Below are positions 33,515 through 64,000 of a DNA stretch of 64,000 bases, piece by piece (within the stretch, counting starts at the first letter, position 1; every line of letters begins with the position of its first letter). Where the stretch lies: NCBI GenBank assembly GCA_973895155.1, contig OZ316899.1, positions 7,195,241 to 7,259,240 of the forward strand. Direction: 5' to 3'. The notes under the pieces are model-generated. The model was given only the letters and a program-made list of their open reading frames with translations. It searched no databases and had not been told where the DNA came from. The stretch is from Marsupella aquatica (lineage: Eukaryota > Plantae > Marchantiophyta). The position numbers and the translations under genes are program-made.

Positions 33515-34222
33515 ACACAAACACCCAAGAACCAAAAGTACTTTCCTCTTCAAGCTTAAGTCTCCTCAAGACCCTCAAAGTAGTGTTACCCCTCAACCTT
33601 GCCCCCTTGGCCTTGGTTTGGGTCCACACATCCCCTTTGAGCTCTAGAGAAGGCTCTTCTATCTAAGGACTCTTCCTCTTGTACTTACTTTTTGTTAACA
33701 CCACACACCAAGCAAAGTACTTTCCACCCTCAAGCTATAATCATCTCTAAGTCTCAAAGTAGTGCTCTACCTTAACCTTGCCTCCTTGGCCTGGTTTTGT
33801 ACTATAACATCTCCTTCAAGCGTAGACCAAGATTACATCATAGCATGGACTCTTCTCTTGCTCTCATATACTTCAAATGCACTCACACTTAATGGTCACA
33901 ATGAAGATTGGCAAGTCTCCTTTTATTGCATCCCCTTTACAACAAAAGTTCACTACACATTCTCCACACTAAGCATGGACCACCTCTCCCTTCTCAAGCT
34001 TAGCCCTACCTTGGCAAGGTAGAGATTCCACTTAAGAGATGAGACTCCCGGTCCCTAACAAATGAAAACTTCCTCCTTATATACTATTCTCCTTCCACAC
34101 CACACCAAGGTAGCCCACCAAGGACCAAGGACCAAAGTCCTACTAACTACCAAAGTCATACTACAACCAAAGTCCAACTAACTACCAAAGTCACACTACA
34201 ACCAAAGTCCAACTAACTACCA
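33515..34222. repeat. Degenerate ~185-bp duplication (33515-33865) and 17/18-bp CCAAAGTC..ACTA tandem array (~34130-34222)
   Basis: Visible direct repeats. Confidence 0.6.
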
Positions 34223-35909
34223 CTCCTACTCAAGCTCCTCCATCTTGTGATTGCCTGGTCTATTCAACCATCTCCCAGCCGCCCTTATTCTTGACTCATT
34301 CCTGCCTTGTGGTAGCCTCGTCGAAGCGTTTTTACACTTAGTCGGATTTTGTTATTTTGAAAAAAATATAATTCCCCTGGCCCATATTGTACCCACCGCC
34401 AAAAATCACCCATAGGGCTAAAAGGACTTTTGAGTAGATCCATAGATTCTCTGGACATAAGGCTATGTCCTGGTTTACTAAGATCTAAACAAAACCCTAT
34501 AACCAATTTTCTAAAATTAGGTAAAGAGGGTTAATTCTTATGTTTTCCAAAATTCTTCTCAACTTTGAGATGCTCCCAAAAAGTAACCAAAGGTAACCAA
34601 GTTTTCCCACAAGTTTCCAGGTATAGAGTGGACCATATTTAACCTACTTTGCAACTTGGAACCCCTACCTTTTCCCATCAGCTATTTTTCCCGAGACCCG
34701 CTATTTGGTAACTTTAAGTTTTTCCAAAATACTTACAACTCCTAGGTTAAGACTCCACTTGACTTTGTGACTTTTATGTGTGGTCTAGGGACTACCTAGC
34801 ACCTATAGGGTGAGTCTTAGCAAAACTTATCACTCAAAAGTATCGGTCATGTCTTCGGCCTGACTTGCCGACTACCGTAACTTCTTTCTGCCCTTACCAA
34901 ATAACTTACTCAACTCTTGATACTTCTTAGAGAAACATGTCCTCTCCCTCAAATTATTTCCCTACTCTACTTCCCTAGTTATTAAGTTACCCTAAACCTA
35001 ACAACTCTGCTATCACTAAAATTATGTAATTACTACTCCTTGAAAGCAAAAAACTGACGCATTTCCTACTCAAGCCTCTACTGAGCCATTCTACACCAAT
35101 CATTTTGTTAGTCCATGAGTCATGGTTTCCCGTTGCTAAGAGACGTTTAGCTCTATCTCTCAATCCCTCTCCCTCTCTCCCCTCTGACTGCCCAAGTTTT
35201 GCACCAATTCTTCAGTGTCTAGAAAAATGTCCAGGGTGTCTGTCCTATGTCTACATTTCCAAATTAGAATGAAACTACTCTTAAGAAGACTATACTTAGT
35301 GAATCTTCTTTTCCTGTGAAGACATTAGACAAGTGTGCGTCACCTGTAATGGTTTGCATGTTGAACTTACAGGTCCAAATTGTGATTTAATTTTGCTACT
35401 GCCTGAAATTTGTATCTCTTGCCTAAGTCCCAGTTTGCTGGAGTTTTGTTGCTCTCTGTGCTTTGTTGGGCACATTGTTGTGTTTGCCTTGTTTGCTCTG
35501 ATCAGTCTTAGCCTGCTGCGGACAAGGCAGGCAATGAAACTTGTCTATTCAATTTAAAACTTCAGAACCAATGCTTTGCTGAAACTCAATTGTTATTTGT
35601 TCTGTGTTGCCCTTATAGATTTTAAAAAGGCAGGGTGAGTGACCACTATTGGATAGCAAGCGAGGGGTCTGTGCTGCATTTTCATCCTGACAACCAAGTG
35701 TAGAGTTGACTCTTTCTGAATGTTGTAGACCATTCCAATTCATTGTAGTAGCAAATGTCTTTGTACCTTGAATGCTAAATTTTACTTTTTGTGCAGTCTA
35801 CTAAAATGTATAGTCTGTACAGTCTGCTAAAATGTATTGTCTATACAGTCTGCTAAAATGTATTGTTTGTACAGCCTGCTTAATTGTATTGTCTGTCTCA
35901 TGCGTAGGC

Positions 35910-37273: not shown

Positions 37274-37954
37274 TATGGGTTCACCCAAGTGAGTTGGCCA
37301 ATCGTACAAAAATGATTCTTAGAGTTCCATGGGACTGAAGTCAAGGACATCACTCCACAAACTACACATGTTGTTGCAGGGACATGGCTGGATGTGATGA
37401 ACAAGTGGTCATGGTCCTTCATTGATTCTGCTATTACCAACCAAGGTCTAAAAGTAGTTGAAGTCTCTTGGCTTACCAATTTTGTTAGACATAGGTGTGT
37501 ACAGGGTACTGAGCAATATGAGTTGTGGGAGAGTGAGGAGGCCACTACAGAGGCTTTGGCTGAAAAGGAAGAGTATGAATCAGTGGCAAACAAACCCAAG
37601 CTTGCTTTTGTCCAAAATGGACCTGTTGTCAAAATAGGACACCATCCTATGGTTGTTGATGCTATATTGAATGAGCAGGGCAAGGAGAGAAATAGCATTA
37701 TGAAGGGGTTCAGTGTGGTATTTGCAGAAGAGGGAATTGGGGAGACTAAGTGCAGACTGTACAAGTCCATAGTTGTTGAGCTAGGTGGGACAGTGGAGAC
37801 GAGTCTAACAGAAACCTCCACTCATGTTGTAGGTCTGTCATACATGAAAATATGCAGAAAATGCTTTAAGACAATAGTGCATCATTTTGTCATGAACAAC
37901 AATCTTTGGGTGCTTTCCCTTGATTGGCTTCAACAAACACCCTCAAACATTTAG
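37274..37954 (+). pseudogene. Tandem BRCT-domain ORF
   Basis: Two repeats: FHGTEVKDITPQTTHVV..VVEVSWLTN and KGFSVVF..LGGTVETSLTETSTHVV..VLSLDWL; stops in the first repeat. Confidence 0.65.
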
Positions 37955-38140: not shown

Positions 38141-41100
38141 ATGGCTCCAAGGTTGCCTCTTCACAACCCATTTAGGATTAGGCATCATGATTCTAAATTG
38201 TGGATGCGTGAACAAGCCCGGGCCGCCCAAGGTAGGAGTAGGAGGATGAGATGCCCATGCACACAGTGCCAAGGATTCAAGTTGTTGAGTTTGAACACTG
38301 TGCACCTTCACCTACTGCGGCATGAAAGGCACCCTCGGTGGAGGGTTTGGCATGTACCAGCAGAGGACAATGAACCGCAGCCACACATTGGACACGGCCC
38401 ACCTGAACCTGACTTGACATTGGGGAAGGTGCAGAAGAGAGGGAGTGGGTGTTTGGGGGCCCAAAACACATCAAAGAAGCTTGCATTCCTATCTACGAGG
38501 GGTCGAACTGCTCCAAGCTGGGTTTTGTCGTGTTGTTGTTGAACATTTGTGGCAATCACAATGTTCCCAATATATTTGTGATAGAGTTGTTGACCTTCCT
38601 GCGCCAAAATGTGTTACCAGATGGTAATTCAATTCCAAAAAATATGTACGAGGCTAGGAAATTGATGTCTAACCTTGGGCTGAACTATGTGTCTATCGTC
38701 ACATGCCCTGATTGGTGTGTTCTCTTTTGCAAAGAGCATGCAGATAAATTGACATGCCCTCATTATGGTAAGCACAGGTACAAGAATGTAGGGAAATGTA
38801 CACACCCTACCAAGGTTCTTCGTCATTTTCCTCTCATTCCTAGACTACAACTTCTGTTTAGATGCCCTGCCATTTCCAAGCTAATGACATGGACTCCTAA
38901 TAACAAGAGCAGTGATGGCCTGCAGCGTCACAATGGAGATTCCAACCATTGGAAATTTGTTGATGAGAGGTGGCCACAGTTTGCTGCAGAGAAGCGGAGC
39001 TTTTGATTTGGTCTATCACTGGATGGAGTAAACCCATTTGGAGACAAAAACAACCATTATCCATGTTGGTCGGTTACGCTGCTAAATTACAACCTTCCCC
39101 ATGGATGACTACAAAGAGGTTTTTTGTGATGATGGTGCTACTAATCCCTGGACCAGCTTTTGTGACCGAGCAATTCATAGATATCATGTTGGCTCCAGCA
39201 GTGGAGGAGTGGAAGACTTTGTGGATAGAAGGGGTGTTAACTCATGATATTCTGAAGGGGCTTCTTCGACCTAGCCCCTTTAGACTGCATGCAATTTGTT
39301 TGCTGGATATAGCAGATTACCCAGGCCATGGCATCATATCTGGACGAGTGACAAAGGGCTATGTGGGGTGCACACCATGTGGGAAAAATGTGACAAGTGA
39401 GTGGTTGCATGCCCTACACAGTATGAAATTTCAGGGGCATAGAAGGTATCTGCCTGTTGATCATCCTTACAGGCATAGACGGTCTCAAATTGCACACTTC
39501 AACAACAAAACAGAGCTTCATGGCCCACCACAGAGGGTCACCAGAGAACAAGTACTGAGGTGGGCAGCCCGAGGGGCAGCCAAGAAGGCTGATTGGGACA
39601 AAAGAGGTGCCACGGTAGAAGAACCTGAGGATCCAATGGTGAAACACGGTGTGAAAAGACAGACCTTGATGGACTTGGAGTTGGAGTACTGGAGGGTAAT
39701 GTACTTAGCCTCCAGCCCCTGCATGATTGCAATTTTAGATTGGAGCAATGGTGGATTGATGTTAGTTACAAACCTCCTATTTGGTTAATTAGTGTTTCTG
39801 TCGTTGAATTCTTTGCTTTGTGGAGTGCAAGAATTCAAGCCCAGCAAACACAATGTGGATGTCATGCACATTGAGAAAACTATTTGCGAGAGCTTGCTGA
39901 CGTTCTTGTCGAGTGAGAAAGATACAGAATTAAGCAGTTCAAGCTGATATGCAACAGGAGGGCATACGCCCTCACCTCTGGTTGAAGCCCCATGCAAGCA
40001 ATCCCAATGTACTTCTCAAGTTCCAAGCTCCCTACGTGTGCACACAGGAAGAATGGAAGACATTCTTGTATAGATTGAGTTGTCTGAAAGTGCCCTCTGG
40101 CTATGCTGGTGCCTTCAAAAAGCATATTACAAAGAATAAACTTGGTAGTATGAAAACACATGACTACCATGTGCTGATGCGGCACATTTTGCCCCTATGC
40201 CTCAGAGGTCTCATGCAAAAACCAGTCCGTAATGTCATTCTTCGACTCTGCAATGTATTCCGCCGTATATGTGTGTAAGTGTGGGATCCCCAAGGATTGG
40301 AGCAGTTGAAGCAGGATGTTGCTTATGTCCTTTGTGACTTGGAGATATACTTCCCCCTGCTTTCTTTGATGTTATGACTCATCTCCTAATCCATGGGTAG
40401 AAGAGCTAGGCCAGTATGGGCCAGTTAGTACCAGATGGATGTACCCTATGGAGCAATACATGAAGTTGTTGAAAGGTCATGTGAGAACATACTACAGGCC
40501 AAAGGCTTCCATGGCATTGGGTACATTAAGGATGAGACGCTAGGGTTCCTAATAGAGTACATGGTTGGGTCTGGTGAAAATGATGGCATGGAGTGAGTGG
40601 CAAGATTGTTGAAGGTGTGGGACATGCTGTGCAACTGTCTGTTGCGATTCAAGACAAGGCTCATTCATATGTGCTGGCGAACACAGAGCCTATGCAACCA
40701 TGGTGGCAGTGAGTGATTGAATTGACTTGCCTTTGTTGTGATGCTTCTTCTCTATTCCAAGCGTGATCTTAGGTTGTCATGTGTTGTTTAGACCTAACTA
40801 TGCCTGTACCTCATATTGCAGGGAATATGATATGCAAAAAGCTGCACACTCTGGACAACAGGATCCCTTCCCACAGTTCGAGCAGTGGATTTGGGTGGCA
40901 ATTCGAGAGCATAGTAGACATCACCCAAATATGGAGAAGGATTTGTATCTTCTATTTGTGCCACCGCAATTTCTATGCTGACCTACAAACGGATGAGAGC
41001 TTACGGAAATCATTATCGAGTGAGGGATGAGCAAGGTGACCATTGTGTATCATATGATTGTGGTTTGATAACTGTGTTTGAGCAGAGAACCTCTGAAGAA

Positions 41101-41763: not shown

Positions 41764-44700
41764 ATGGGGGAAGAGGATGATGACATGGAGACTGACATGG
41801 GGCTTGGAGAGTGGGGTGAAGAGGAAAGATTGGATATGGGTGGAGACCCAAATGCAGGGGGCTCACAGAAAAATGCACCTATGCAGGATGCACAGGGCCC
41901 ACGTCAAGTGCCAGGTAGGTGGGCAGCCAAAGAGAAATCACATAATCCATACCCTAGAAGGAGCCAGAGTTATTGGCAAGGGACGCCTGATGATAGGCAA
42001 TATGATGATGACTACAATGGAGCAGAAGACGGATAGGATGAATATGAACACCCAGAGCGTGGTAGAGATGGGTACAGAGGACAATGGCAAGATGATGAGG
42101 ATGATTGGACAAGTAAGTGCCTTGTGCTTGTGATTTTGTGATGTTAGTAGAGATTGTAGCTCAATATGGACTAATCTTATGTCTGGGGCAAAGAGTTTAT
42201 CTTACAGGTCCATGAGTGTGGCATGTGCAGACTCTGATTGGGACAATCATGAAAACAACAAAGGCCATCCATGTTCAGATAGGAGGCAATCATTCACAGG
42301 CGGGAGAAACCGCCCTAATTCATCAAGACAAGGCAATTGGACAGGTGGTCGAGAACCATCTATGCGCCCAGGGAGAGGTACTTGGTCATTGCAGCATTGT
42401 TGTTCAGTATGTTCAGTGTATAGCATGGCAGCAATATTGTTGCTTCATACTTAAAAAACGGATCCTGTAAATGTCCAGGGACTCCAGGGAGGTTTGGACA
42501 ATGCAATCCAGGCCGTGGGGGGAGAGCAGGCCGTGGGGGGACTCCAGGCCGTGGAGGGACACCAGGCCTGGAGGGACACCCAATAGCGCTTTGGGGAGTA
42601 CCAAGGGAGGAGACAATAACAAATTTGGTAAAGTAGAAGTGAATTCTGATGGTTGGATAACTCCCACATGTGATGGCAAGAACCGTTGGCATTCTGACTT
42701 GAGAGGAGAAGTATTGCGCTGGTTATATTTGAGCATTACAGAGTTTAGAAGTCAGAACAAAGCCGATTGGGCTGCTATTTTCAAGGACATTCTTGAACGG
42801 TGGGACTATGTTGGTAATGATAGTAAGGGCCCAGTTGAAGATTGCATATCAGATTATGCAATGAGGATTTTGAAACAAGAGAGACATAGGTTGAAAAAGA
42901 TGTGGATAGACAATGGTTCTAACAGGAGAATGCCAGCACCCCCATCACTGGAACTGGATCAATGGACACGGTTAATCAAAGGGTTCATGTCGGAGGTTGG
43001 GCAGAGCAAGAGTGAACTGCTATCAAATGCTTGAGGCAAAGTGAAACACCTTTCACAGACTGGGAGAGGAAGTTATGCTCCAGTGAAAGAACAACTGGTA
43101 AGGCAGTGACATGTTTGATAGTAAACCTCTAACTTATCATCTTGTACCATTATTACATTTTCATTGACAATCAACACTTGGTTTCATTGACATGTATGTT
43201 GATGTGGCATGCAGAAGAAATTGACAGGTGAAGAACCATCAGCACAAGAAGTGAGAGAGGAGTTCATGAAACAAAGGAGTGAGGTGACAAGTGTCAATTC
43301 CAAACAGGTGATTATGACAGTTATATGAGATATGTGCCTTGGTGTAATGTCAGGGAACTGTTACAACTCTGACAGAGATGTGTGAACGGTTGAAGTCATT
43401 AGAGTGTGGACTCCCTCGAGTGGAAAGTAAATTGGGTGATCGCTTGGATATTGTGGAGGCATCTATAGCAAACCTTCTTGCATCAGTGGAATCTAATTTC
43501 AAGCTTGTAATTGAAAAATTGGGTGGTTCCCAACCGCACAGTGAGGGCAACCTTGTACAAAGTGTGTCTTTGTTCACAAAAAAGGGAATTGGCAAATCTG
43601 ACACAGGTATCGAAATGACACCTATATTGTTCATTGTGCCATGAGATGGAAATGTTACAACTAGGTTTTCATGAATGGTTTGAATGCAAGAACAGCGGAA
43701 GCATTGAAGGCAGATGTTTTTTGTAAGCAGAAGGGCAAGAAGGTTCTTGAGACTGGTAATATGCTATGATTCAATAGTTTACATTTAAAAAGTGCATGAA
43801 GTTTGGTCAAGCTTAAGTTACAGTGAAAGGTAATCTTTACTGTGTCACCTTGGTTGGATGAACAAAATTTGAAGTGACATTATGATTGATGTATTAGGTG
43901 ATTCAAAGACAAATAATGAAAAAGATGTGCCCAGTGCCTCAGTGTCCATAGCCAACCTGGAGGTATTAGGTACGCTTATGCTTTAAATTCCTGTATATGA
44001 ATGTTGTGAGACAATTCATTGGTTAACAGATTCAACCTGAATATTGTGGTGTGTTTATTTTTATTCATTTAGGATCAGCAGAAGCAGACATGGAGGATGT
44101 GGCAATGGCAAAGAAGGGGAAGAATGTTGTTCATATTGGTAAGGTGATAGTGACAAGTTTGTGGTTGGTGACATTACATTTAGCACATATGATTAGTGAT
44201 TGACTTATGCACTGAACAATGCACTGAATTCTAGTTGATGCAGAGTTGACAGACTCTCAACCAAGTGGGAGCAGGGTGAAGCGATGCCAAAACTTGGGAG
44301 CAACATTGGATGCAAGTAACATTGTACATGCTTTAATTGAAGCAAGTACAATGTTTGCATATACTCAGATGATGTCGCAGGGAAATCCTGCTACACAATT
44401 GGAAGTGTCAAATATGGATGCAGATTCTTTGAAGAAGAGTGTCCCCGATTCTCGATCACCAGCACAAAACACTTGTGCCAAAGTATGACTCGCAATCAAG
44501 GTATGAACAATGTCATGTATAAGCCACCCAGAAAAGCCAAGAAAAACAGCCAGGGTAAAGTGGAGGTGATGGTCACAGCAGAGCCAGTCCATAATCTTCT
44601 ATCATGGGAGGATGACTCACAGGTATGTGTGGGTACAGGCATTTTACGACCGGATCATGCTAAATTCCATGGCAAAGTGGTCCCGGATGACCATGTAGTA

Positions 44701-48868: not shown

Positions 48869-51800
48869 TGTGATGCCTAGCCAGGAATCACTGGGCTAGT
48901 TTAAGGGGAAAAGGGAAGTGTACCCTAGAAACGCCTTAGTATAGTTACATAAATAAGGAAAATATAAACAATTAATGGTGACTATGGAACCCGAGCCGAG
49001 GCTGGAAGTAAGGACGCCAGGGGAGAGAACACGATTAGGGTTAGGGCACGCTAAGTGCCGGCGGCTAGGGGTAACCAACGGGAGGGAGAACTAGAGGAGG
49101 AGAGGGGTAAGGACCGCTTGCGAGGAATAGTAGCTCATTTGCAAGCACGAACTGAGCAGGCGACTACGGGCGGCCAACTACTGTCAACTGCTTAGGCAAG
49201 CGCTCAGCGTGGGAACAGATACCGACTATCAACTCGAGAAGGGTATGAGCAACGTCAATCAAGCGGCACATTTTTGGGGATGCCTGTTCGAACGGGCAAT
49301 TGAGTACATTGGGACTTACGAGGATGCAGAATCGGAGAGAGCAACTCGAGAACGGTTGGAGCTCGCCCGATTGTGGGAGCTGCAAAAAGCTGCCTTCTTA
49401 GGAGGAGAACTCATCAAGGCTGAATTCCTGTGGACGCCTACTGGCAACGAGCTAGACGACCTGCTGTTTTGCGAAGACAGAGTCATCGGCATCCGAGAAG
49501 CCATCAAACGCTGCAACGACATACACTGGGAGTTGAAGGGTAGCACGGAGGGGTGGACAAAGGCAACCGTGCTAGGAGAGACATCCATGACAGCCGAGAT
49601 GAAGAGGAAGGGGAACAACAACGAAGAGGCCACCCCGGCAAAAAGAACGCGGTCGGCGGCACCAAAGAAGCCAGCAGAACAACAGAGCAGGAGGCAAAGA
49701 GAAGCCGAGGAGGAGGAGGTCGACCCCATCAATGCCATTCCAACAAATGATGACACCTGGAAAGGCTGGGCAGTGACCCTACCGGAGGAAGTGCAATTAC
49801 ACTTTGCACGGGAGGAGGATGCATGCTTTACAGCCATGCAGACCAAGAAGTACCAAGGCTTCATGGCCGGATCCGGCTTGGAAGCCTTCGTAAGATTACC
49901 ATGGCTGAAGCCGGAGGTGCTGGACTCAGACTTGTTAGAATTCGTGGGATCATGGGAACCCGAGACCAATTCCACGAGGGTGTATGGGAAGGATTTCTAT
50001 CTCACTCCCCGGGTGATTGTTGAAGTGTTTGGCTTGCCGATGGGTAATAAGACCAAGGTTGATACCAGGAAGACCTTACCTGACAAGGAGTTTTGGTCAT
50101 TCCCAGGACCATCAACAAAGAATGGCTTCTTCCGGAACACCTGCACCAACCCACACATCGGAGAGATGATCAATTTCTTGCGGGTGACCATGCACTGTAA
50201 CTTGCCGAGGGCAGAGATCGGCAAGGCTCAGGTCTACCTGGCAGAAAGGCCAGACCCAAGCCGGGATTACAATGGGTACCTCCTCAACCAACTGAAGAAG
50301 ATCTTGAAGGAGGAACAATAGGTGATCGGCGTGGGAAGCGTGTCCCGGCTTGGCTATCACATGCCGCTATTGTGCCGGTGCCAGAAGTCAAATCTTTGCC
50401 CCAGTACTTCCCCTATCGACAAGAGCACTAGAGGAGGTCCCGGAGCAGAGGCCGGCACCAGAGAAGCCCAACCAGCCCGATAGTCCGACGATCGAGCAGG
50501 TGTGTAGACCAAGGAAAGAAGACTTGCCGATGGAGCAACCAGGCATGCAGAATCTGCTGAAATTGCTGGAGAAGGAAAGGAGAACGGTTCCGGCAACGGC
50601 AACAGAACCGGCACCGATACAGGACGCTGCCCCAGAAGCCGACCTAAGCCGGCTTACAAGGGAAAACCCCTTTACTGGAGTCAAGGAGAGAGGGAGGCCG
50701 GAACACGAGCCGGGAGTCCGGATGTATGTAGGAGCCTCAAGTCCCGAAACCGAGGAAAAGCAGGTCGTAGCTCCCAGCCACAACAAGGAGAACAAGAGAT
50801 CAACACGGAAGCCGGAGGAGGAACCAAGACCGGTGAGAGGTGAAGCCGTGTTCACAACAAAACCGGGAGAACAGCGGGAGAAGCCGGTAGTCCAAGCCGA
50901 GGAGGAGGCGGTAGAGGACTACAGCAATGATGACTCCGGCTACGGGTCGGATCATCATGTTCCAGGAGTAAGGGTAGTTCGAGGAGACCCAAGCCAGCAG
51001 AGCAGAGCAGCCCCGAGTCTCCCCCACCAGATGTCGCTCCCCCGAGCTTTGACGGCATAAAACAGACGGTGCAGGAATTTGAGGAGCGAATCAGGGAGGA
51101 AGAGGAGGCAGCCCTGGCTAGGGAAAAGGATTTACCAGGAGGAGAATGGCCAGAGGACATCAGGCGGCTTGCAGAAAAACAAAGCAACCCTCTTGCCACC
51201 GTAGAAGAAATCCGCAAGACGGCTTGGGAGCAGAGGCCGCGGTGGTTGATGCCGATGACTTCTAGTTACTCCACCTATGCTAAGGATAGAGCCATGGAGT
51301 ACGGGGAAATGTGTGGAGAGCTGGCGCTCAGCATCTTTGGGGAGGAGTTGGAGCAAGGACCCTTTTTCCAGAGGGAGATGTTGGAGAAGCGCCAATTAGA
51401 AGAAGCGGTGGCTTTGGAAAGAAGCAAGAAGGACGAGGTCATCCGTCGGCTTAGGGCAAGAGAAGACGAAATCAAAGACCTGGGGGCGGCCAAGAAAGCC
51501 CAAGATGAGCTGCGGATTAAGCGTCATGAGCTAAATATCATGCAGGGCCAATTGGATACCGCACAGTCTGATAATCGGATTATCGAGAATAAACTGACTC
51601 GAACCCAAGGAGAGTTGGCCGATGCGATCAAGGAGCGGGAGAAGTGGAAGCAAGAGCTGAGGGATGCAGAGGAGGCCCACATAACGGCCAACAACCAGGC
51701 CATGGCGGAGACCCAGAGAAGGGAAAGGGCATTGAAGGGGGAGCTTGAGGTTATCCGTGGAGCCCTTGAGAAGAAGGAGGCCGAGTTAGGGAAATCCTAT

Positions 51801-53582
51801 CAAGGGATTATTGCGCTGCAGCAGGAGCTTGCATCCCTGACGGCCAGCTTCAAAGCCGACCTGCGTGAGAAGGACAATATGCTCGATCAGACTTACGCCA
51901 AGATGAACCAGATGGAGTCTGTCATCATTGCAGAGCTCGACAAGGAGTTAAGAGCGACCCAGTAGGAGAGAGCTGCGTTTAAAAAGGAATTGGAGGAAGC
52001 CCAGAAGGAGCTGGAGGAGGCGCGCAAGGACCTGGACGAAGTGCAGGAGGAGTTGGAGGAAAGCACGCGGAAGCTAGAGAACTTACAACGACGAGCTGAC
52101 AACCAAACGGAGTGGCTGAAGAAACAAGCCGCAATATTTAAGTGCTTGGCTTCATCAGGGCCAACTCAAATTGAGGCCACTAAGTTACCAGGAGTGGTAC
52201 TGGCCAAAGGACAAACCGCACCATTTGCACCAGTGCCGGAAGTAAGTGAGAAGGGGAAGGGGCCAGCTGCCGAACCAGAAAAGAAGAAGAAACGGAAACC
52301 TTCAGGGTCAAGGAGTAATACGGCTCCACAGGCCGTGGTGACCATGGAGGTAAACCCAACACCGACCTCAGGCAGGATTACGGCAGAGGATCCAACTACC
52401 CTAGAAGGGGATGACAAAGCCAAGGCCAGGATACTCGGTAAAGCCGAGGTACCCAATCTGCCACTTAAGTGTGCAGGGGAGGCCGTAGCCGAGGCTGAGG
52501 CCGTAGCCAAGGCTGATGTTGAAGCCGATGCCGTAGCCGATGCCGGCGGTGGACCCAGTCAGGCCGATGGAGAGTTGACTCAGTCAAGGATAGGTAATCT
52601 GTCAGAGAACGAACCTACGGCAGTGGCTGAGGAGGAAGCATTGGGGGCGTCCACTGAGGGACAGACACCGCTGCCATGACGGTGGTGGAGGGCCGCTCCT
52701 TTCAAGGAGGGCGGACGTGGAGGGAGGAGGCGTGAGTGGGCAGGGCGGGCTCAGATCTCTAAGTTTAGGATTAGGATCAGGACCAGGAGGCGGCCCTGAC
52801 ACTTAGCTTAGTGGGATTGCGGTTCCACTGGTAAGAGCAACACTTGTACTCCTGCCTCGTTGTACATAGGTAGATTCAGTTAGGTAGATTAGGCTTACGC
52901 TGCAAAGAATTAGGCGGATCCACTACCAGGATAAGTACCTGGGCAGCGGGGAGCTCAGGGCCTCTTCTTTAGCAAGTTTTTAGTTGCACTAGCCGGGCTG
53001 GGATCAAGTAGTAAGAGAAGCTCTCGGTTAGTCATACAATGACCCTTGTGTATATTCATGTTTCCTCATGCCTAAGAGCTTAATAGAGTTGGCCTCACGG
53101 CTTAGTTCGCAGAGCTTGTGTATGAGATGTACTGTTTGTATGGCAAGTGCCTGGTATGACTCAGTCAGAAGGAGTCATTTTGCTATTTGTGTGTCGCATT
53201 AACTTGTGTGAAGAGTGCCCACATCAACTAATAGATGAAGGAAAGTAAGCAAGGGAGTGAGAGTTGGATGTGTTGAGCTGAGAGAGGTCTTAGCGGCTTA
53301 ACCAAGCCTATTGGGGATCATTCCGGCGGCGGAATCCAAATATACCTAACAAGAAGGAGGGAAAGACAAACGAAGGCCTAGATTAGGTCGGCTACGTATC
53401 TCATGACCCGATGAAGGATCTGTCCAGTATATGTGTGTAAAATGTTAATAGTAGTAGTAGAGGGAGGTTAGCAGCGTCCCATGCCACTAAGCCGCAAAAA
53501 CGGCCTCGCCAAGCGCGAAACCTACGGGAATCGGCTTGTGAAGGGGGTTTCTGGGGTTTAGGGAGCCATGGGACGCACCACA
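48869..53582 (+). mobile_element. 4.7-kb solo LTR of the G1/G2-like family, containing a long ORF
   Basis: Termini TGTGATGC..GCACCACA; perfect 5-bp TSD GTATT (48864-48868 and 53583-53587); no gag/pol; no terminal direct repeats. Confidence 0.9.
49245..52679 (+). pseudogene. LTR-encoded protein (~1140 aa ancestral): Transposase_32/Athila-ORF-like core, Pro/Glu linker, long coiled coil, basic NLS-like KKKKRK
   Basis: GLEAFVRLPW..EFVGSW..TRVYGKDFYLT..VFGLP parallels GFEHLASLPW..EFVKNY..TRLRG..LT..IFGL of G1; two stops and two frameshifts. Confidence 0.8.
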
Positions 53583-54624: not shown

Positions 54625-56179
54625 AAACACCTCCTCCTTCTGTAAGGCCACCCTCTCCTCCTAGGTTGCCTTTAGCTCTGCGTTGAGCTCATGGACAACA
54701 TCAAACTTGATCTTATTCATTTTGTCATAGGTTTGATCGAGCATGTCATCCTTCTTCCGCAGCTCAGCTTGGAAGTTGGCCGACAGGTCCTCCAGGTCTC
54801 CCTTCAACTTGTCGATGCCCCTGTAGGTCTCATCAAGTTTGGCTTGTTTCTGATGAAGGGCCTTGCGGCATTCTTCGATCTCATCCTTTAGTGCCCGCTC
54901 CTTCCCTTGGGCCTCGGTTATGGCTCTATTGCAGGCCGTTATGTGAGTTGCCTCTGCCTTCTTCAGCTCCTGCTTCCACTTCTCCTTCTCCTTGAGGGCT
55001 TCGGCCAAGTCTTCCTTAGTCTGGGCTAGTTGCGCTTGCATGATACTTATTTCATGCTTCCTAACTTGTAGCTTGTCCTGGGCCTGCTTGGCCACCTTTA
55101 ACTCTCCGGTCTCGGCTTCCTTCTCCCTTAGCCGTCGGATGACTTCCTCCTTCTTCATCCTCTCCAAGGCCAGTGCATCCTCCAATTGGCTTTTCTCCAA
55201 CGTCTCCTTATGGATGAAGGGTCCCGTCTCCAATTCTACCCCAAAGATGTCGAGGGCGAGTAGCCCGCACATCCTCCCATACTCCAGGGCTCTGGAACGT
55301 GCATAGGTGGAGTGGTTAGGAGATGTCGGCATCTCTCAACGTGGCCTTCTGTCCCAAGCCGCCCTCCGTATCTCCTCAAACGTGGGCAAGGGCCCGGCTT
55401 GAGTCCCTGCCAGTCGCCAAATGTCCTCTGGCCATCCACCGCCTGGCAAGTCCTTCTCCTTGGCCAGGGTTGCTTCCTCTAGGTCACTGAATTGCTGTTG
55501 CAACTCGTGATTGGCCTGTTGTCTTCCGTCAAAAATTGGTGGAGGTACGTCCGGTGGGGGAGACTCAGGGCTCCCCTGCTGTTGTGGATCCCCACGCACC
55601 ACTCTTGGTAGTCTGGGGATAAAATGGCCGCAAGTCCGCACCCGTGGTACCGAGCAATCTGACCCGTAACCCAAGTCCTCATGGTATTCCTCCACATATT
55701 TCCCGGCCTCCGGCCGTCCTGGTGCCTGCTTGTCCTCTCTAGGACTAGCCGTAAACCCGGCCTCCTGCCAAGGATTATACATGCGTGCGGCTTGCCCTTC
55801 CGGCTCCCGCACCTGACTTCCGCACTCCTTTTATGGACTGGGAACCTTGGGTCCCAGTTCCTCTGATTCTTCACTCTAGGCTCCTACGTACATCCGCACC
55901 CCTGGCTTGTGCTTCGGCCTGCTTCTCTTTACGGCCCCGGCCATGGGTTCTCCTTCAGCGGTTCTTCCGGTGCCCGCTACCGCTGCCTCTGGTGCTAAAG
56001 CCGCCTTCTCTTTCTTCAGTATGTGCAGGAGGCTCTGCATGGCCGGTTGTTGCATTGGCCCGACTTCCGGCGCCTGTCGGAAGACCTGAGCTATCATGGG
56101 GCTGTCGGGCGGGTCGGGCTGCTTTGTTGTCGGCCTCGGTTCTGATTCCTCTTCTGACACTCTAGCCTGCAGGGGAAGG
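54625..56179 (-). pseudogene. Diverged paralog fragment of the LTR-encoded ORF
   Basis: GVRMYVGA, DLGYGSD, EKDLPGGGWPEDI, RALEYGRMCG..DQTYDKMN align with 50.4-52.0 kb. Confidence 0.85.
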
Positions 56180-58866
56180 ATTGGTGCTCCATAAAGAATG
56201 ACTGGTTTCACCAAAGCTCCAAAGAGATGTTTCCTTAACCTCCAAGTGTGTAGACCAGCTCTTTTGCATTTGTTCATGAATGCATAAAAAGCTCTGTACC
56301 CATTGGCAGCCCTAGATTTTACACATGAGGCCCAACTCAAGTTTTGAGAGAACTCCACCCCAAGGTATTTGTAGGTCCTCACAAATTCCACCAGATTCCC
56401 TTGGAAGTAGAGCTCTGGATTTTGTCGTGTGCCAATGCCCAAACACTTGGTCTTCTTGAGGTTGACTACCATCCCTGTTGCTTGACAAAACTCCTCCAAG
56501 GCATTGAGATGTCTTTGCAAAGCTTCTTGAGCATGAGCAAGTAGGACCACATCATCTGCAAATATAAGAAGTTGGAGGACAAACCTACCCAATTGAGTGC
56601 CAACTCCACCATGCTCCTCCAAAATGTTGTGTAGCTGATCAATGAAGATGCCAAAGAGAGTTGGTGAGAGAGGACAACCTTGGATCACCCCAAGAGTGCT
56701 CCAGATTTCTTCAGAGGTTTCCTTTGAAAGTTTGATGCGCACTTCTTGGTACAATTTAGAAACAGCCAACCTGAGCTCTTCAGGCACTTCCAACTCCACC
56801 ATCCTATCCCAAAGCTTGGATCGAGAAACTTTGTCAAAGGCCTTGGAGAAGTCCACAAACAAGCAAAATAATGGTTTATGTGGAGATTTGGCCTTTTCAC
56901 ACAACACCCTCAAGCAGAGAATGTGATCCATAGTGCTGAATTCTCTCCTAAAACCTGCTTGTGAAGGTGCCCTTTTCATCTCACTCTCCAACCAAGAGCT
57001 TAATTTGGCTTCAAGTAGTCCTCCCAAAACTTTAGCAAAAGTATTGCCTACCATGATGGTTCTGTAGTTGTGCACATCGTCCTTGTTGCCTGCCTTGAAG
57101 ATAGGCACCACTCTTCTGGTCATCCAAGCTTTAGGTAAACCTAAAGCCATTGCTTGATTCAGCTCATGCACCAAGTTTGTTAGTAAAGAGGGTCCTCCCC
57201 ACAAAAGAAGCTCCAAGTTCAGGCCCAACAGATCTTTAGCTTTCCCATGTTGCATGTGGGAAAGATGCACCTTCACCTCCCTCTCTGTAAACTGAATGGT
57301 GTCCCCAAGGGGCAAAGGCATGCCACTAGCATCTGGAAAGAAATACAAGGATGTGACATAGGTTACCAGGTCCTGGTGATCCAAGGGGGGAGTAGTCTTG
57401 CCTGATTGCATTCTCTCCCAAAAACGTTTTGGATGTTTGATGAACTCCTCACATAGTGATTGTTGATGACTCTTCAAGAAGCACCTCTTCTTGTGTTTGA
57501 TGAAGTTCTTGTACATAGTGAATGCCAAAAGTCTCTTTTCCCCTGAATGTGATCTTGCTTGCATCCTTGCTCTAGCACAATCCTCGTCAAACCAAGCCTT
57601 CATGTTTTGCTTTCTAGGGGGTTTGGTGGAGAAAGTAGAGGCTGCTGCTTGTGCTATGACTTCTGAGAGCTCAATCTGATCATCCAGGGTATGGAGAAGA
57701 TGTTCAAAGTTGGCTTTGAAGATGACTTCTCTATCAGGGTCTAGAAACAGAGGTTTGGGTACTGGCTTTCTATGCACTTTGTTTGGGATTGTGGTCAGGT
57801 CAAGATGGAACAACAAAGGCAAGTGTGAAGACTCTGGTTGTTGATCAAGTATTTGAAAGTCAACCACTCTAGTGGCAGAGGTAGGTGAGGCAAGAAGGTA
57901 ATCAATGGTACTACATCCTTGTTTAGATCTAAAAGTGTAACCAGATGATTGGGGAAATCTCTCAAGCCCATTCAATATTCTTAGATTACAAGAAGCTCCC
58001 AAATGCAAAAAGTGACGTGTCATGTCATTTGTTCTGGTGTCAAGAGCCTCTCTCACCCAAGGTATCTCTTCACTACATGATGACCAAGGTAAAGTTCCTA
58101 AGTCCTCACTTTCAGTAAATTGTTCATTAGATACCCTGGCATTAAAGTCCTCCACTATCCATGTCTCCCCTAGTGGTGATATATCATGAATGACTTGGAT
58201 TAACCTATGAAATGGATAATGTGCATCAGCAATTCCCATCTTATAGACATTCATATTAAGGGGAGCAAAGTAGGTGACAATCAGAAATGATGGAGTACCT
58301 CTAGTATGAAGTCTCACCACCATGAACTGCTTGCTGGGATCTTCATGTTCAATAGAGGTGATGTGTTGAAGTTGATTCTTGGTGTAGACAGCAATGCCTC
58401 CAAACCCTCTTCCCCGTGTGGTCTTCTTCTCATTGAAGATGGATTGTATGCAAGTAAAGCCTTTAATGCTAGGTAGAGCATTTCCCTCATATTCCCAAGT
58501 CTCCGTGAAAAGCAAGATGTCAAAATTCTCAAACAAAGGTTCCCCTCCAATTGCTGTTTCTATGGAAAGTCCTGAAACATTCCATGCCATGACTCTCAAG
58601 GTCCCGATCCATCATTTAGAAACAACTCTCTTCTTATTGGTAACAACAGCTTGTCCATTGCGCAAGTAGGCTACCAATCCTTGGTCTTTGGCTACCCTCA
58701 CCTTCTCAAGCTCAATTTTCCTTGCTTGGACTTGTGTGGGAGTCAGATCATCATCCAACCAAATCCTTAGCCCTTTAAGCATGCTCCTGTTAGCCATCAC
58801 TCTAGCTTTCTCGAATTCAGCTGCAAACTTCACCAAGATTGGACGTGGAAGGTCCCCTTTGGTGAA
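56180..58866 (-). mobile_element. RTE/RTEX-like LINE copy 2: ORF1 C-terminus plus APE endonuclease-RT, 3' end deleted
   Basis: ORF1 RPILVKF..IWLDDDLT (58612-58860); EN WNVSGL/ETW/DFNAR/IDY/SHLP; RT near-identical to copy 1. Confidence 0.92.
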
Positions 58867-58869
58867 TAT

Positions 58870-61800
58870 TTCTCAACCTATTTTTCAGTGGCTCCGACAT
58901 CTCTGCTTTTAGTGACACCTTCACAAGGCTCTTGAAATATCCAGTGTCCACCATTGCACAACAATGATCCAATTCCTCATCAGTGAAATTATATTGCTGA
59001 ACTACATCACCCCAAGTTGATCCTTGCGAGAAAACCCCTTCGTACTTCTCCCGATAGAATCGAAGTATTGCCCCCTTAAGTTTCTCTGTATACTTTGCTT
59101 TTCTTGCCAATTCTGACATGGCGGGAAGATCAGTCAAAGCATGTTTTTTTTCATCAAAAGCGCCTCCCCCAAATTCACTTTGTGGAGGATTTCCAAGATG
59201 TCGGATTCTACGGCACCCTCAAAAACCCGGAATGTTGTCCCTGTCAACTGTTTTGCTTCTTTCGATTTTCCTGTCATTTGTCCGGATGAATCCAAAAGAT
59301 TACTCTTGAGCCAATTATTGCAAACCTCTCTCCATAAAGAGTAGAGCTTCTCGGGAGCAAACAAAATCCAATTGTACTCGCTGATGCTATTCACCTTTAA
59401 CGTAACTTTCGTAAGTGTTTCATACTCCTGGGAGGAAAGACCAAACAACTCAAAGTTAGCCAGCTCAAAGTTTCGAATCCCCAAATACTGGAAAGGCTCT
59501 ACACGACTCTCGCGTAGAAAGGATTTTGTTCACAACTCTCATGGAGAACCTCCCTGAAATTATGGAGATTTTCGACCCGATGGAAGTGGACGAGCTGGTC
59601 GCCCCATATCACTGTATTGCATTCTTGCATGTTTCACTTGATCAATAAATGGAGATGAAAACCAATGTGCCTCCGCCTGAAGGTTGTTCGCGTATGAAAT
59701 TTCCACAAGAACTTTCACCGGAGTTGACCCTTTGAGAATTTGCGCTCGACGATATTTGAGCAAATTGGCTGTTTGCATGAGAGATGGTTGGGTCTTTGAA
59801 CTCTGGATAATTTTCTTGGCGGCCATTGTGGAATGTTGACCACTGATGGCAAAGAACTTGAATTCCGCAAGCTTCTTGGTGTCAATGTCCTTTCCCGCAA
59901 GGTCAATTAAACTCGGTACTCCGTTGATCATCTTGTAAGGAACCAAATCTGCAGGTAAAGGTTCTTGCCCTGCATTTGTCATCATCAGTTGCGCAAGATG
60001 GTTGACATGCTCCTCATTGAGGAGTCTCTCATTCATCTTGGCAGGAGGGGGATGGATGTTTTCAACCGGGACAGAAAAAAATCTGGATATCCCAAAACAA
60101 TACCAAGACTTATTCAACTCCAATGTTTTTTCTGCAGTCTCCAGACGAGCACGGTCGACAACTAGCTTCGCGGAACTAGGGTTCTCGTCAATCTCAACAG
60201 CTTCCTGATTTTTCTTTGCTTTCTTGGGCTTGCGAACGACAGCTTGAGAGGTGATGACAGCCTGCTTCTCAACGTTTGGGGCCTTCTTCCCCACGGCTTT
60301 GACCATGGGAGTTTTCACAACAATTTTAGCCGACTCTGTGGTCGTTCCCCTTCACTTAGGAGGCTTTGCCCTTGATTCCACAACTACTGATTCAACATCA
60401 AGTTTTGCTTTTTTGTTTCCCTTTGGTGCAGGATCTTTTACGACTCCCTTTCGCTTCAGCGTCCTGATCTCCGGTTCAACCTTCTCAACTTTCTTCCTGA
60501 CCGACTCAGATTTCTGTCCAACCCGAGACTTTTGAGTCGGTTTCTCCTCCTCAGGTTTTTCTGGTGAAGCAACTTTCTTTGCTTTGCTTGATTTTCGTAT
60601 TCCTTGCGCTTCCTCGACAACTTGAATTCTCTTCCGAGAAGATGTTGCCTCTTCTTGTTTATCAATCAAAGATAAGTTTTTTCCACCTTTCACTTGAGGC
60701 ACGACTTCGCGCTGGTCAGAAACAAGAACTCTCTTTCGAGATGGTTTCTTGTCTTCTTTTTGTTCTTCCCGTTGAACCTTCTTGCGGCCTGTTTTTGCCG
60801 TAGGCGGCTCATCTGCTTGATCAACGACTCTCACTCTCTTCCGAGGTAGTTTAGCTTCTTCTTTTGTTTTCTCAAAATCAACCTTCTTCCGACCTAGTTT
60901 CCCTGATGGTGATTTTTTGTCCACTGCTTTTTTCTTCCAACTGGGTGTGGATGACTCTGACACGACACCAGCTTTCCCCTTCCTGGGCGAAACTCCCTTT
61001 GAAGTCTTTGCGTATCGCTTCTCTATTGGAGGCTTTGCTGGTGGGATGACCTCATTTTGTTGAATTTCCCCACTCTCACCATCATCGTTGGTTGGTTCAA
61101 CTGCACCTTCTAAACTTGTTGACTCTGACTCATTCTCTGACCCCGCCCGATTCTGAAAAGTCTTCTTGCTCTCTTCTTGGACACTTCCCTCCTCTCCGTC
61201 ATCCTCATTTTCTGTCTCATAGACTGATATCGTTTCATGGGACTTGCTCTCTCCAGAGGCGGACGAGTCATCCTCGGAGGAGTCATCCTCGGAGGAGTCA
61301 TCCTCGTCCTTTCCCTCCCCATCATCATCGTCAATCTCTTTTCCACCAGCTTCTTTCTTCTTTGGGCGTACCAAGTCTTGGATTACTGGATGCTCTCGAA
61401 TCCATTCCTCCACCTTTGTCTCACTGAAGTGTTTCATGAACACAACATTCGGAGAAATAGTCATCTTTCTCCTCCAGTCATCGTCTGGGATCTTCATCCG
61501 CATTATGTGATCCACCTCTCGTGTCCGAGAGATAAAATTTTCGGACTGCTTCATGACATAGGAGACCCATCCAAGCCCTAGAATTATTTCATCAGCCGTA
61601 AAGACCCGATCAGGTGACAGCCATCTATCCACTAAAGGATCAAAGAAACCGCAAGAGACAACATTTATGTCCTGGTTGTAAGGTTCAAGACAATGTGCTG
61701 AGCAAAACCCATGAAGTGGAGCAACCATCTTTGAAATTCCAAGAACTCTCACACTCCAATGTCAGCAGAAGAGATGGGTTGTCCTTTGGGGACGCAAACC

Positions 61801-61933
61801 TCGTACAGTCTGCGAGAGTGCCAAAACTCACAAAGTTTCTTCGTCCATTTTCTATTTTAACTCCCCTCACAATCAAACGGTAGTTGCCTTTGACTGGTTG
61901 CAATTCAAAAGACCATGAATTCACTGTCGCCAA
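58870..61933 (-). pseudogene. Unclassified TE-like gene: acidic and Lys-rich N-terminal half plus ParB/Srx-like domain
   Basis: 60352-61752 and 59560-60318 are in the same frame across a single TGA. Motif VPVENI.PPP..NERLLNEEHV..L...M..FFAISGQHSTMAAK. Probable intron ending TTTCCAG near 59488. Confidence 0.55.
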
Positions 61934-62125
61934 AATATTCTGAAGTTTTGCGATCGTTGGAGTTTCAATGCGAAGCCTGTCAAAACGGAAATAAACAGAG
62001 CGAACTCCTAGAAGACAAGGAGAAATATGTCAAACATCTGCACGACACTCGCGTAGAAAATAAAGTGAGCCGAAAAACTGTTGATTCATTACAAACAAAA
62101 TGATGTCAAAACATCCTTTACAAAA

Positions 62126-62227
62126 TGGCCTCTTTGGCGTGTAAACGGTCCCGCAAAAATGACTATCAGACCTCTGGCCTCTTTGGTGTGTAAATGATCC
62201 CGCAAAAAATGACTATCAGATCTCTGG
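62126..62227. repeat. ~50-bp tandem duplication
   Basis: TGGCCTCTTTGG(C/T)GTGTAAA..CCCGCAAAAATGACTATCAGA twice. Confidence 0.8.
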
Positions 62228-63267
62228 AGATAGTCGTATGAGCCATTTGAGCTCATCATCATTCGGAGTCAAAACATTGTCCAGATTTAAGAAAACAATC
62301 TGATCCGCTAGAAACATAAGAGAACCTTAACTCAAAGTATGCGAACACATGTGGCCATGAAGGCAACAATTGTTTTTTTCCAATTCAATTCATCGCACTT
62401 TGGTATCCAATTGTCTTTCCCTCTCTCGGCCATCGGCCAGCTCCTGGCGCAAGTCATGAACTTGACAATCTCGAAACTTCTCCATCTCAAGAGAAGCTTT
62501 CATGGACTTTGCCGCTACATCGCAAGTAGTCAAATGTTGGATCTGTGCCCATCGATACTTTGCAAACATCTGCTCCCGCTCGTATTCTATTGCTTCCTTT
62601 TCATCCTCCAACGCTTTTTGGAGAATGGAATTCTCCATCAAACTCATATCAAAAGCAGAAATACTTTTTTGCAACAATCCCTCAATCTTCTCAAAATCGT
62701 CCTTGCGATGAGCGCCTTCCTCTAGAAAAGTTGAAAGAACAAAGTCACATGAACAATGTTTTGATTCCAAATGGTACTACCTCCGAACGAGGATTTAACA
62801 CTCTACAGAACCTGAGTTTCTACACGACAGTCACGTAGAAATCCATTGTCTTCCAAGATTGGAGAAACGGTCTACGCGAGACTCGCGTAGAATTGAACAG
62901 GAAATTCTAAATTCTAACATAAAGGCTCTCAAATAGAGAGTATGGGTCGATGAAAGAGACCCACTCTACACGACTCTCGTGTAGAGCAGACTCAAGTTTA
63001 GCACAATCCATAGAAAATAGAGAAATGCAGGTCATAATTACCTTTGAGCTTCCTCAATGCAGCCAGAGCAAGTAAGCCGGCATCATTTTCTGCCAAAGAA
63101 GTTGTCATTGCCTTCGCACGTGCGAACTCCTCCACGACAATGTCAAGCACTGACCAGTTGAGCAAAAACAAATAGAAAACACAAATGATCCAAGGTCCGA
63201 GGCCCGAGGTCCTTTTATAGTCCGAGGCGAGCGTGAAAGAGCGTGAAACAATCTGAGGGCCGAGCGT

Positions 63268-63292
63268 GAGAGAGAGAGAGAGAGAGAGAGAG
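63268..63292. repeat. (GA)n microsatellite
   Basis: Seen directly in the sequence. Confidence 0.9.
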
Positions 63293-64000
63293 CAAGAGAG
63301 AGCGTGATTGACAGAGAAAGAGAATGAGAGCGACAGCGAGCTGGAAAGCAACATATACCCCTTGCGGTCGCAACAATGATTGCGGTCGCTACCCGGCCGC
63401 CAAACCTGACACTCGGGATCTGGTGGAGGACGTGTCACTAACATGGCAAACCACCACCCGCCGCCAAACCAATCTGCATTTATGGAAATGGCTGCTCACC
63501 ACACTCCACGCCGCCACAAAAAAGTACTACACGACAATCTGGTAGAGTTGAAAGTCTGAAATTCTCGCACCCCCACTCACTATATAACGTGACAGACCAC
63601 TTCGTGCAAGTCATTGTTTGAGATCTGACTCATTCGTGCCTTCAGTCCGAGGTGGGACTTTTGTTAAAGCGTGCTCTGTTGTTTCAGGTACTGCTCCTGT
63701 CATTTTCAATTTTGTTTTAGTGATTGTGTCAGTATGTGAATGTATTTGCTTGAGTCTTTCCCATTGGGATGTCGTTTAACTGTACAAGTTTTAAGAGCCT
63801 ATTAATGTTTATTCAGTAGTAATCTCTATTGAATTTTGGACTTTTGATTGTCTACACGAGCCTCGTGTTGTTCCCTTCGTCTATCCAAATACAACTTTCA
63901 ATAGAAAGTTCCTCTAAAAAGAATTCTCATTTCAGAATATCCATCTCTGTGTAGAAGTTTTAAGAGCCTACTAGTGTGTATTCAGTCGTAATCTCTATTG

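Follow-up and report, generated by a model that had tools for sequence, protein, structure and literature searches.

What do seven palindromes do that lie scattered around a broken ParB-like gene in a liverwort genome? The question is raised by a 64,000-nucleotide stretch of Marsupella aquatica DNA (contig OZ316899.1, positions 7,195,241 to 7,259,240; hereafter the window, with positions counted from its first letter), at whose right end the gene and the palindromes form part of an element that is probably a giant plant DNA transposon. We propose, with about even confidence, that the ParB-fold protein encoded by the element docks at the palindromes, which would shield the element's promoters and introns from silencing. 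That this protein and these palindromes are partners, whatever the outcome of their pairing, we consider rather probable.

The sites share the 21-bp consensus TCTACRCGA-N3-TCGYGTAGA, a 9-3-9 palindrome present as five strong and two weaker copies between 59498 and 63871:

59498-59518, unstranded: palindromic site 1, no mismatch to the consensus, in a 126-nt intron of the ParB-like gene
59527-59547, unstranded: faint, probably decayed site in the same 126-nt intron, five mismatches
62037-62057, unstranded: palindromic site 2, one mismatch, between a coiled-coil-like open reading frame (ORF) and the first modelled exon of the ParB-like gene
62819-62839, unstranded: palindromic site 3, a single mismatch, in intron 62722-63041 of the upstream ORF
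62871-62891, unstranded: palindromic site 4, perfect, no mismatch, in intron 62722-63041
62965-62985, unstranded: palindromic site 5, perfect, no mismatch, in intron 62722-63041
63526-63546, unstranded: weaker site 6, three mismatches, between two divergent TATA-like boxes
63851-63871, unstranded: weaker site 7, two mismatches, in the first 169-bp repeat unit at the window edge

The initial annotation had listed the five strong copies, with coordinates and letters that we recovered unchanged, and sites 6 and 7 as degenerate ones, which they are. At two mismatches or fewer, the consensus gave 12 strand-matches (six sites), against a mean of 0.02 and a largest value of 1 in 100 dinucleotide shuffles. 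It had also reported no copies elsewhere in the window, and our scans agree: none was found in the 64 kb outside 59498-63871, and a position weight matrix scored the seven sites at 18-30 bits, the faint eighth at 9.8 and the best match elsewhere at 6.7. Separate sites with other spacer lengths (0-11 tried) were not found anywhere in the window, and TRF detected no array over the strong sites.

The flanks of the seven sites are unrelated to one another (mean identity 0.26, maximum 0.375 over 21 pairs, equal to background), and conservation is therefore limited to the motif. Of the earlier description of conserved arms around a free spacer, the first half holds against these flanks; the spacer does vary, but it is biased, reading (C/G)(A/T)(C/G) in all five strong sites. 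Each arm carries one or two CG dinucleotides. The strong sites are quasi-palindromes of common polarity, with a left arm ending in ACACG and a right arm beginning with TCGCG on the plus strand at 59498 and, more loosely, at 62037 and 62819; only 62871 and 62965 are perfect palindromes. Exact motif scans elsewhere returned one viral-contig locus and 30 metagenome-contig loci. All 31 had a single site (no second within three mismatches), and none resembled the ParB-like protein or the window, so these loci were treated as chance matches.

The placement of the sites was examined against the following features:

59554-61851, minus strand: large modelled exon of the ParB-like gene, with a predicted acceptor at 61852/61851
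59428-59553, minus strand: predicted phase-0 intron of 126 nt, with a good pyrimidine tract and a CAG acceptor
58858-59427, minus strand: next predicted exon, encoding a conserved helical domain, with a frameshift near 59143 and ended by a long interspersed nuclear element (LINE)
56180-58857, minus strand: LINE (endonuclease and reverse transcriptase), its 5' end adjoining the ParB-like gene
62327-63108, minus strand: predicted upstream two-exon ORF (exon 63108-63042; intron 63041-62722, 320 nt, holding three sites; exon 62721-62327)
63213-63219, minus strand: putative TATA-like box of a leftward transcript, read by eye
63581-63587, plus strand: putative TATA-like box of a possible rightward transcript leaving the window, read by eye
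63781-64000, plus strand: likely start of a tandem array of period 169 (unit 63781-63949; next unit cut at 64000)

The copies had been described as lying mostly outside the long ORFs; in fact, none of the seven overlaps a modelled exon (a placement open to 34% of start positions; p = 5e-4, or 4e-3 for the strong five), a test that rests on an exon model predicted from sequence by a listing of donors and acceptors together with gaps in homologs. Among nine homologs that cross 59428-59553, eight are without 37-42 residues there, and four are without exactly 42. We therefore place at this position a 126-nt phase-0 intron, called probable in the initial annotation, which holds site 59498. Divergent contigs of other copies jump over 59430-59603. 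A reading of site 59498 as part of the coding frame was dropped, since the homologs show an intron there.

The ParB-like gene occupies a minus-strand frame from about 61850 to 58860. Its large exon encodes, in order, an N-terminal region of about 170 residues without homologs, a long charged low-complexity linker and a ParB/sulfiredoxin (Srx)-fold domain at about 59600-60150, which carries an SGQHS motif. This exon is broken by a frameshift near 61730 and by stops at 60352-60354 and 59560-59562; the stops and frameshifts of the gene fall where the contigs of other copies differ. That a ParB-like gene lies here, as first noted, is supported by structure prediction. An AlphaFold2 model of the domain from a 75-sequence alignment reached a predicted local distance difference test score of 90.9, compared with only 33 from the single sequence. 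In Foldseek searches of this model, the top PDB entries were Noc, PadC, sulfiredoxin and ParB, at E values of 1.7e-3 or weaker and thus never below 1e-3; in a separate search, phage ParB proteins were matched at E 1.3e-4. With VIA, all eight matches of Z at least 5 belong to the ParB/Srx superfamily (best Z 8.3, root-mean-square deviation 3.2, 98 aligned). The Z scores are middling, but all top rows agree, and we are confident, on the strength of the model, that the gene product contains a ParB/sulfiredoxin-fold domain; the predicted fold is treated as established in what follows. In the SGQHS signature, His is found in 74 of 74 occupied rows and GQHS in 60 of the 75 aligned rows, and an upstream arginine, R64, is kept in 58 of 62.

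Searches by sequence were less productive. A Pfam scan of eight window ORFs gave no family under E 0.05, and PDB profile searches with the ParB-part and helical-part alignments found no ParB or helix-turn-helix (HTH) match, so that no HTH was detected by profile in the helical domain, which is possibly the DNA-binding part. A word-index search with the window domain among longer proteins returned no match; the same search with the ParB-part alignment also returned none, which is uninformative because it covered only proteins of 2,082-5,000 residues. No ParA ATPase gene was found among the window ORFs, the element continuing past the right edge.

What an intact gene would encode is seen in its homologs. 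The read-through translation retrieved 108 homologs (best E 6e-36), and among 20 looked up by species were six from Riccia sorocarpa, two from Calypogeia fissa and one from Adiantum nelumboides, all of them liverwort or fern proteins. Examples from Riccia sorocarpa are KAL3682925.1, KAL3687116.1 and KAL3695087.1. This spread suggests that the host is probably a non-seed land plant. Of 113 retrieved proteins, 78 match in the ParB part only, 26 in the helical part only and nine in both. Two unbroken homologs, P0112 (1,009 residues) and P0114 (1,219 residues), contain the ParB domain, the helical domain, a methylase-like domain and an acidic tail, in this order. They thus fuse a ParB-like domain to a domain resembling a DNA-modifying enzyme, an arrangement that the initial annotation missed and that is gone from the window copy at the LINE junction. 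A profile of the methylase-like domain matches M.RsrI (E 4e-5), pairing a DFFSGG-like motif with DFFAGSG of M.RsrI. PF01555 was matched under the cut-off in three of 24 scanned homologs, and N6_N4_Mtase clusters match the domain at 0.85-0.88, a lead only. The DFFSGG-like S-adenosylmethionine (SAM)-binding motif I was found in seven of the 113 proteins and in P0114-P0116 (an eighth regular-expression match sits in another domain). It lies near the C-terminal end of the methylase-like domain, as expected of a beta-class N4-C/N6-A methyltransferase. The catalytic motif IV, (D/N/S)P(P/L)(Y/F/W), was found in none of 16 homologs checked, several of them fragments; at its putative position, assigned by sequence context and not by alignment or model, an Asp is at least 90% conserved and is followed by F-x-R or similar. 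By the motifs tested, the protein is thus neither a canonical CTP-clamp ParB nor a canonical methylase. A search of viral sequences for loci related to P0114 found no locus. One further homolog, P0108 (Adiantum nelumboides MCO5591555.1), matches an NIF-like phosphatase domain over residues 717-856 (E 1e-8), either through an additional fusion or because gene models were merged.

The window copy is one of many. Sampled words of 58900-64000 were found in public contigs of two organisms, A and B, one of which may be the source, at 35-58% (four runs, two studies), and of a third, C, at 7%. Each A or B run contained 370-594 short contigs of mixed identity, in which C>T and G>A were the commonest changes. 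The element is a multi-copy, methylated repeat family, and the sites and the gene travel together in organisms A and B. The window copy itself is a dead pseudogene, a state not recognized in the initial annotation, with stops, frameshifts and a LINE replacing the methylase part: no part of the methylase-like remainder occurs in the window, where the LINE takes its place from 58857. At 58857/58858, the loose ends of contigs show both a LINE with other sequence attached to it and an element that runs on without the LINE. The LINE therefore inserted later, and the rest of the element lies outside the window, which also does not contain the sequence found past 58858 in copies free of the LINE. At 63694, the loose ends of other copies diverge into short TACAGTTT-like repeats.

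Other copies differ in their sites as well. The mismatch of site 62819 (at 62833) is private to the window copy, differing in all covering contigs in four of four runs. Loose ends before 62809 and 63013 (30 nt) reveal further sites with one or two mismatches in other copies (two of four runs, one study), the one before 63013 ending 237-245 nt that are unlike the intron of the window copy; a third loose end holds merely a poor motif copy. In both organism-B runs, positions 62778-62812 carry an indel-rich variant that, when read by hand, looks like an additional consensus site.

Several results weigh against the proposal that a ParB-fold protein docks at these sites to shield the element. The GxxR arginine patch is the CTP-binding motif of CTP-clamp ParB proteins. 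Its arginine occurs in none of the 75 aligned rows, serine standing in its place, and the CTP-clamp part of a ParB-like reading is for this reason doubtful. The exon model behind the exon-avoidance test is our own, drawn from sequence alone, and the donor of the 126-nt intron is GG instead of GT, either decayed or indicating a boundary slightly off. Variation in the arms is not reduced relative to the surrounding intron (variable positions 6/53 versus 23/248, p = 0.61; outside CpG, 1/36 versus 21/240, p = 0.33), in a test that is weak both ways, since rare variants are lost from the contigs, in which dead and live copies are mixed. Five of the six arm changes are CpG transitions, one of which (62832) is in most of the organism-B depth, and many copies were therefore methylated at the sites. 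The ratio of observed to expected CpG in the element, 0.75, is no higher than in a copia-like or one gypsy-like element of the window (0.69 and 0.75); it is 0.21 in the LINE and 0.27 and 0.41 in CACTA-like stretches. Finally, no transposase, terminal repeat or target duplication of this element was found in the window, so that the transposon is itself something that we infer.

The same evidence was weighed against other explanations. The sites might be bound by a transposase or a TnpA-like partner encoded past the right edge, with the ParB-like gene as a passenger, which has a small but appreciable chance of being correct. Six of the seven sites are clustered in the right 2 kb, on the side of the 169-bp repeat and the possible rightward transcript, a possible transposase gene candidate beyond the window. 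Yet the strong site 59498 is 2.5 kb away from the others, inside an internal intron of the ParB-like gene, and spaced palindromes are a closer match to ParB-family sites than to CACTA ends, whose motifs are direct. One study bears on both sides, as transposases and TnpA can activate cognate copies but the AtMu1 transposase peaks at terminal repeats (10.64898/2026.08.24.746577). Alternatively, an active non-canonical DNA methylase could be delivered to the sites and write N4-methylcytosine (4mC) or N6-methyladenine (6mA) on the element. The SAM-binding motif and the conserved Asp at the motif-IV position are in its favor, and a protein of the brown alga Ectocarpus, discussed below, is predicted to methylate (PMC12477816); given that none of the 16 homologs checked, several of them fragments, has a DPPY-type motif, we regard this as unlikely.

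Two further explanations were weighed. Neutral remnants of local duplication, or sites for host factors, would account for the common polarity, for the one site in a tandem unit and for arms that show no depletion of single-nucleotide polymorphisms, but the arms have stayed near-identical over 4.4 kb while their flanks are at the background identity of 0.26, and in other copies sites persist next to diverged intron sequence. Unconnected sites of this kind are decidedly improbable. The motif could also act as RNA, as a hairpin with a 9-bp stem and a 3-nt loop that would form in the leftward transcript's introns, where four strong sites lie. Counting G-U pairs by eye, four of the five strong sites pair fully on the minus strand compared with two of five on the plus strand. 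A single ancestral C-to-T change copied in one orientation would give an equal bias, however. On the minus strand, pairing in 62037 is interrupted by an A-C mismatch; 63526 is upstream of the TATA-like box that would serve the leftward transcript, and the arms retain their sequence rather than pairing alone. We consider a hairpin very unlikely.

For docking by the ParB-fold protein, we envisage the following mechanism, in which the steps that we infer are dimer binding and the release from silencing. A dimer would read both 9-bp arms, probably via the helical domain that follows the ParB domain, and the protein would come in trans from intact copies. The methylase-like domain would grip or shield CG-containing DNA rather than write 4mC or 6mA, which is the more likely option because the DPPY-type motif is absent. 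Bound protein would then free the promoters and introns of the element from host silencing, a VANC/VirB-like effect on cognate copies. CTP-gated sliding is not part of the proposal. The initial annotation had suggested that the protein loads at these sites for ParB/parS-like spreading or VANC-like self-protection, a reading that our results support in part. More tentatively, these copies may represent a widespread liverwort and fern family of giant transposons in which a ParB/pseudo-methylase of bacterial or phage origin, lacking the CTP arginine, acts on intronic palindromes to shield the element from 5-methylcytosine (5mC), independently of VANC; we see this as possible rather than probable. 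If true, it would give land plants a second sequence-specific anti-silencing system, one derived from prokaryotes, and possibly a means of changing the epigenome at chosen targets. With its CTP motif altered and its catalytic motif missing, the protein also raises a biochemical question of its own.

The remaining features of the element lie around the upstream ORF and the window edge. The ORF encodes about 150 residues, charged and coiled-coil-like by eye, with a stop at 62390-62392; it has no Pfam family under E 0.1 and no homolog among 118 retrieved proteins. Its first exon may also be that of the ParB-like gene, as both predicted acceptors are in phase 1. Between site 62037 and this ORF lie two 49-nt tandem units (62126-62227, 90% identical), one of which is skipped in one organism-B contig. 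At the window edge, 51 nt are 90% identical at a spacing of 169, and one X5 contig steps back by 169; 63781-64000 is thus likely the beginning of a tandem array, and the site of the next unit would start at 64020.

The window as a whole is eukaryotic and rich in transposons, with CACTA-like, gypsy-like and copia-like ORFs and the LINE, named by eye from translations. LINE pieces at 8907-10307 and 56180-57580 are 99.6% identical over 1,401 nt, reflecting very recent activity or local duplication, and the copy at 56180-58857 is without its 3' end and joins gypsy-like sequence. An apparently intact copia-like element (26647-32433) has a 1,548-residue ORF (27173-31819) between identical 164-nt direct repeats and is likely very young. 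The coiled-coil ORF region of a gypsy-like element is present in two inverted copies (50994-51988 and 54635-55587, 67-70% identical). An ORF at 37316-37954, with tandem BRCT repeats by eye, adjoins a CACTA-like transposase (38413-39788) and is possibly an accessory gene. Three-copy tandem repeats were found at 10386-10506 (37 nt), 34131-34235 (35 nt) and 42507-42575 (18 nt).

The mode of action proposed here probably resembles, by analogy, those of algal ParB accessory systems and of VANC. With bacterial ParB/parS, Noc/NBS, KorB and the anti-silencer VirB, the system shares a predicted ParB/Srx N-terminal fold and dispersed palindromic sites. It differs from this group in having GQHS for GxxR, in the lack of a detected ParB-type HTH and in being a eukaryotic gene with introns. 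The parS site is 16 bp long, compared with 21 bp including a 3-nt spacer here. VANC is not known to have a ParB fold. In Arabidopsis, VANC of VANDAL elements acts on element-specific motifs in non-coding regions and introns, set in one orientation, and demethylation has been demonstrated (PMC5735166). The palindromes likewise lie in modelled non-coding DNA or introns, are similarly oriented and gained or lost between copies, but VANC motifs are non-palindromic words of 8-9 bp (PMC5735166). Among the domain's 30 Atlas neighbours, the only named family is fungal DUF3723 (PF12520), an accessory family of Starships (rank 15, score 0.92, 151/256 features, 31% of members); it is a lead only, and the window protein has no Pfam match to it. 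ParB-HTH domains fused to chlorophyte-type Dam methylases have been described (Iyer et al. 2015), and the CTP residues of phage ParBs are dispensable for their ability to activate DNA-modifying enzymes (PMC13229309).

The closest parallels come from seaweeds. Sola1-1_Ec32 of Ectocarpus is a giant transposon with a 1,104-residue ParB-like and N4/N6 methylase accessory protein encoded opposite the transposase (PMC12477816). The domain order is the same as here, where homologs have 1,009-1,219 residues and a divergent promoter is likewise predicted; unlike it, the present family is from land plants and has a methylase-like domain without the DPPY-type motif, the likeness being drawn from the published description. 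Palindromes are not mentioned in the passages on its accessory protein (PMC12477816). PAG3 of Plavaka (EnSpm) elements in the red alga Bostrychia is a ParB-like accessory gene adjoined, as here, by inverted repeats, for which self-binding and self-modification were proposed (Petroll et al., 10.1101/2025.02.11.637652). PAG3 is fused to a 2-oxoglutarate oxygenase, the methylase being on PAG2, and its repeats form tandem arrays, whereas the sites here mostly stand singly, dispersed over introns and spacers. A full-text literature search, which did not extend to subscription papers or supplements, found no land-plant case of such a ParB-like accessory system. Self-binding or self-marking by transposon ParB-like proteins has so far been proposed for seaweeds; the present case offers a sharp 21-bp candidate site, a large homolog family (Riccia, Calypogeia, Adiantum) and full-length homologs, and the idea becomes testable in plants, where 5mC silencing is well studied.

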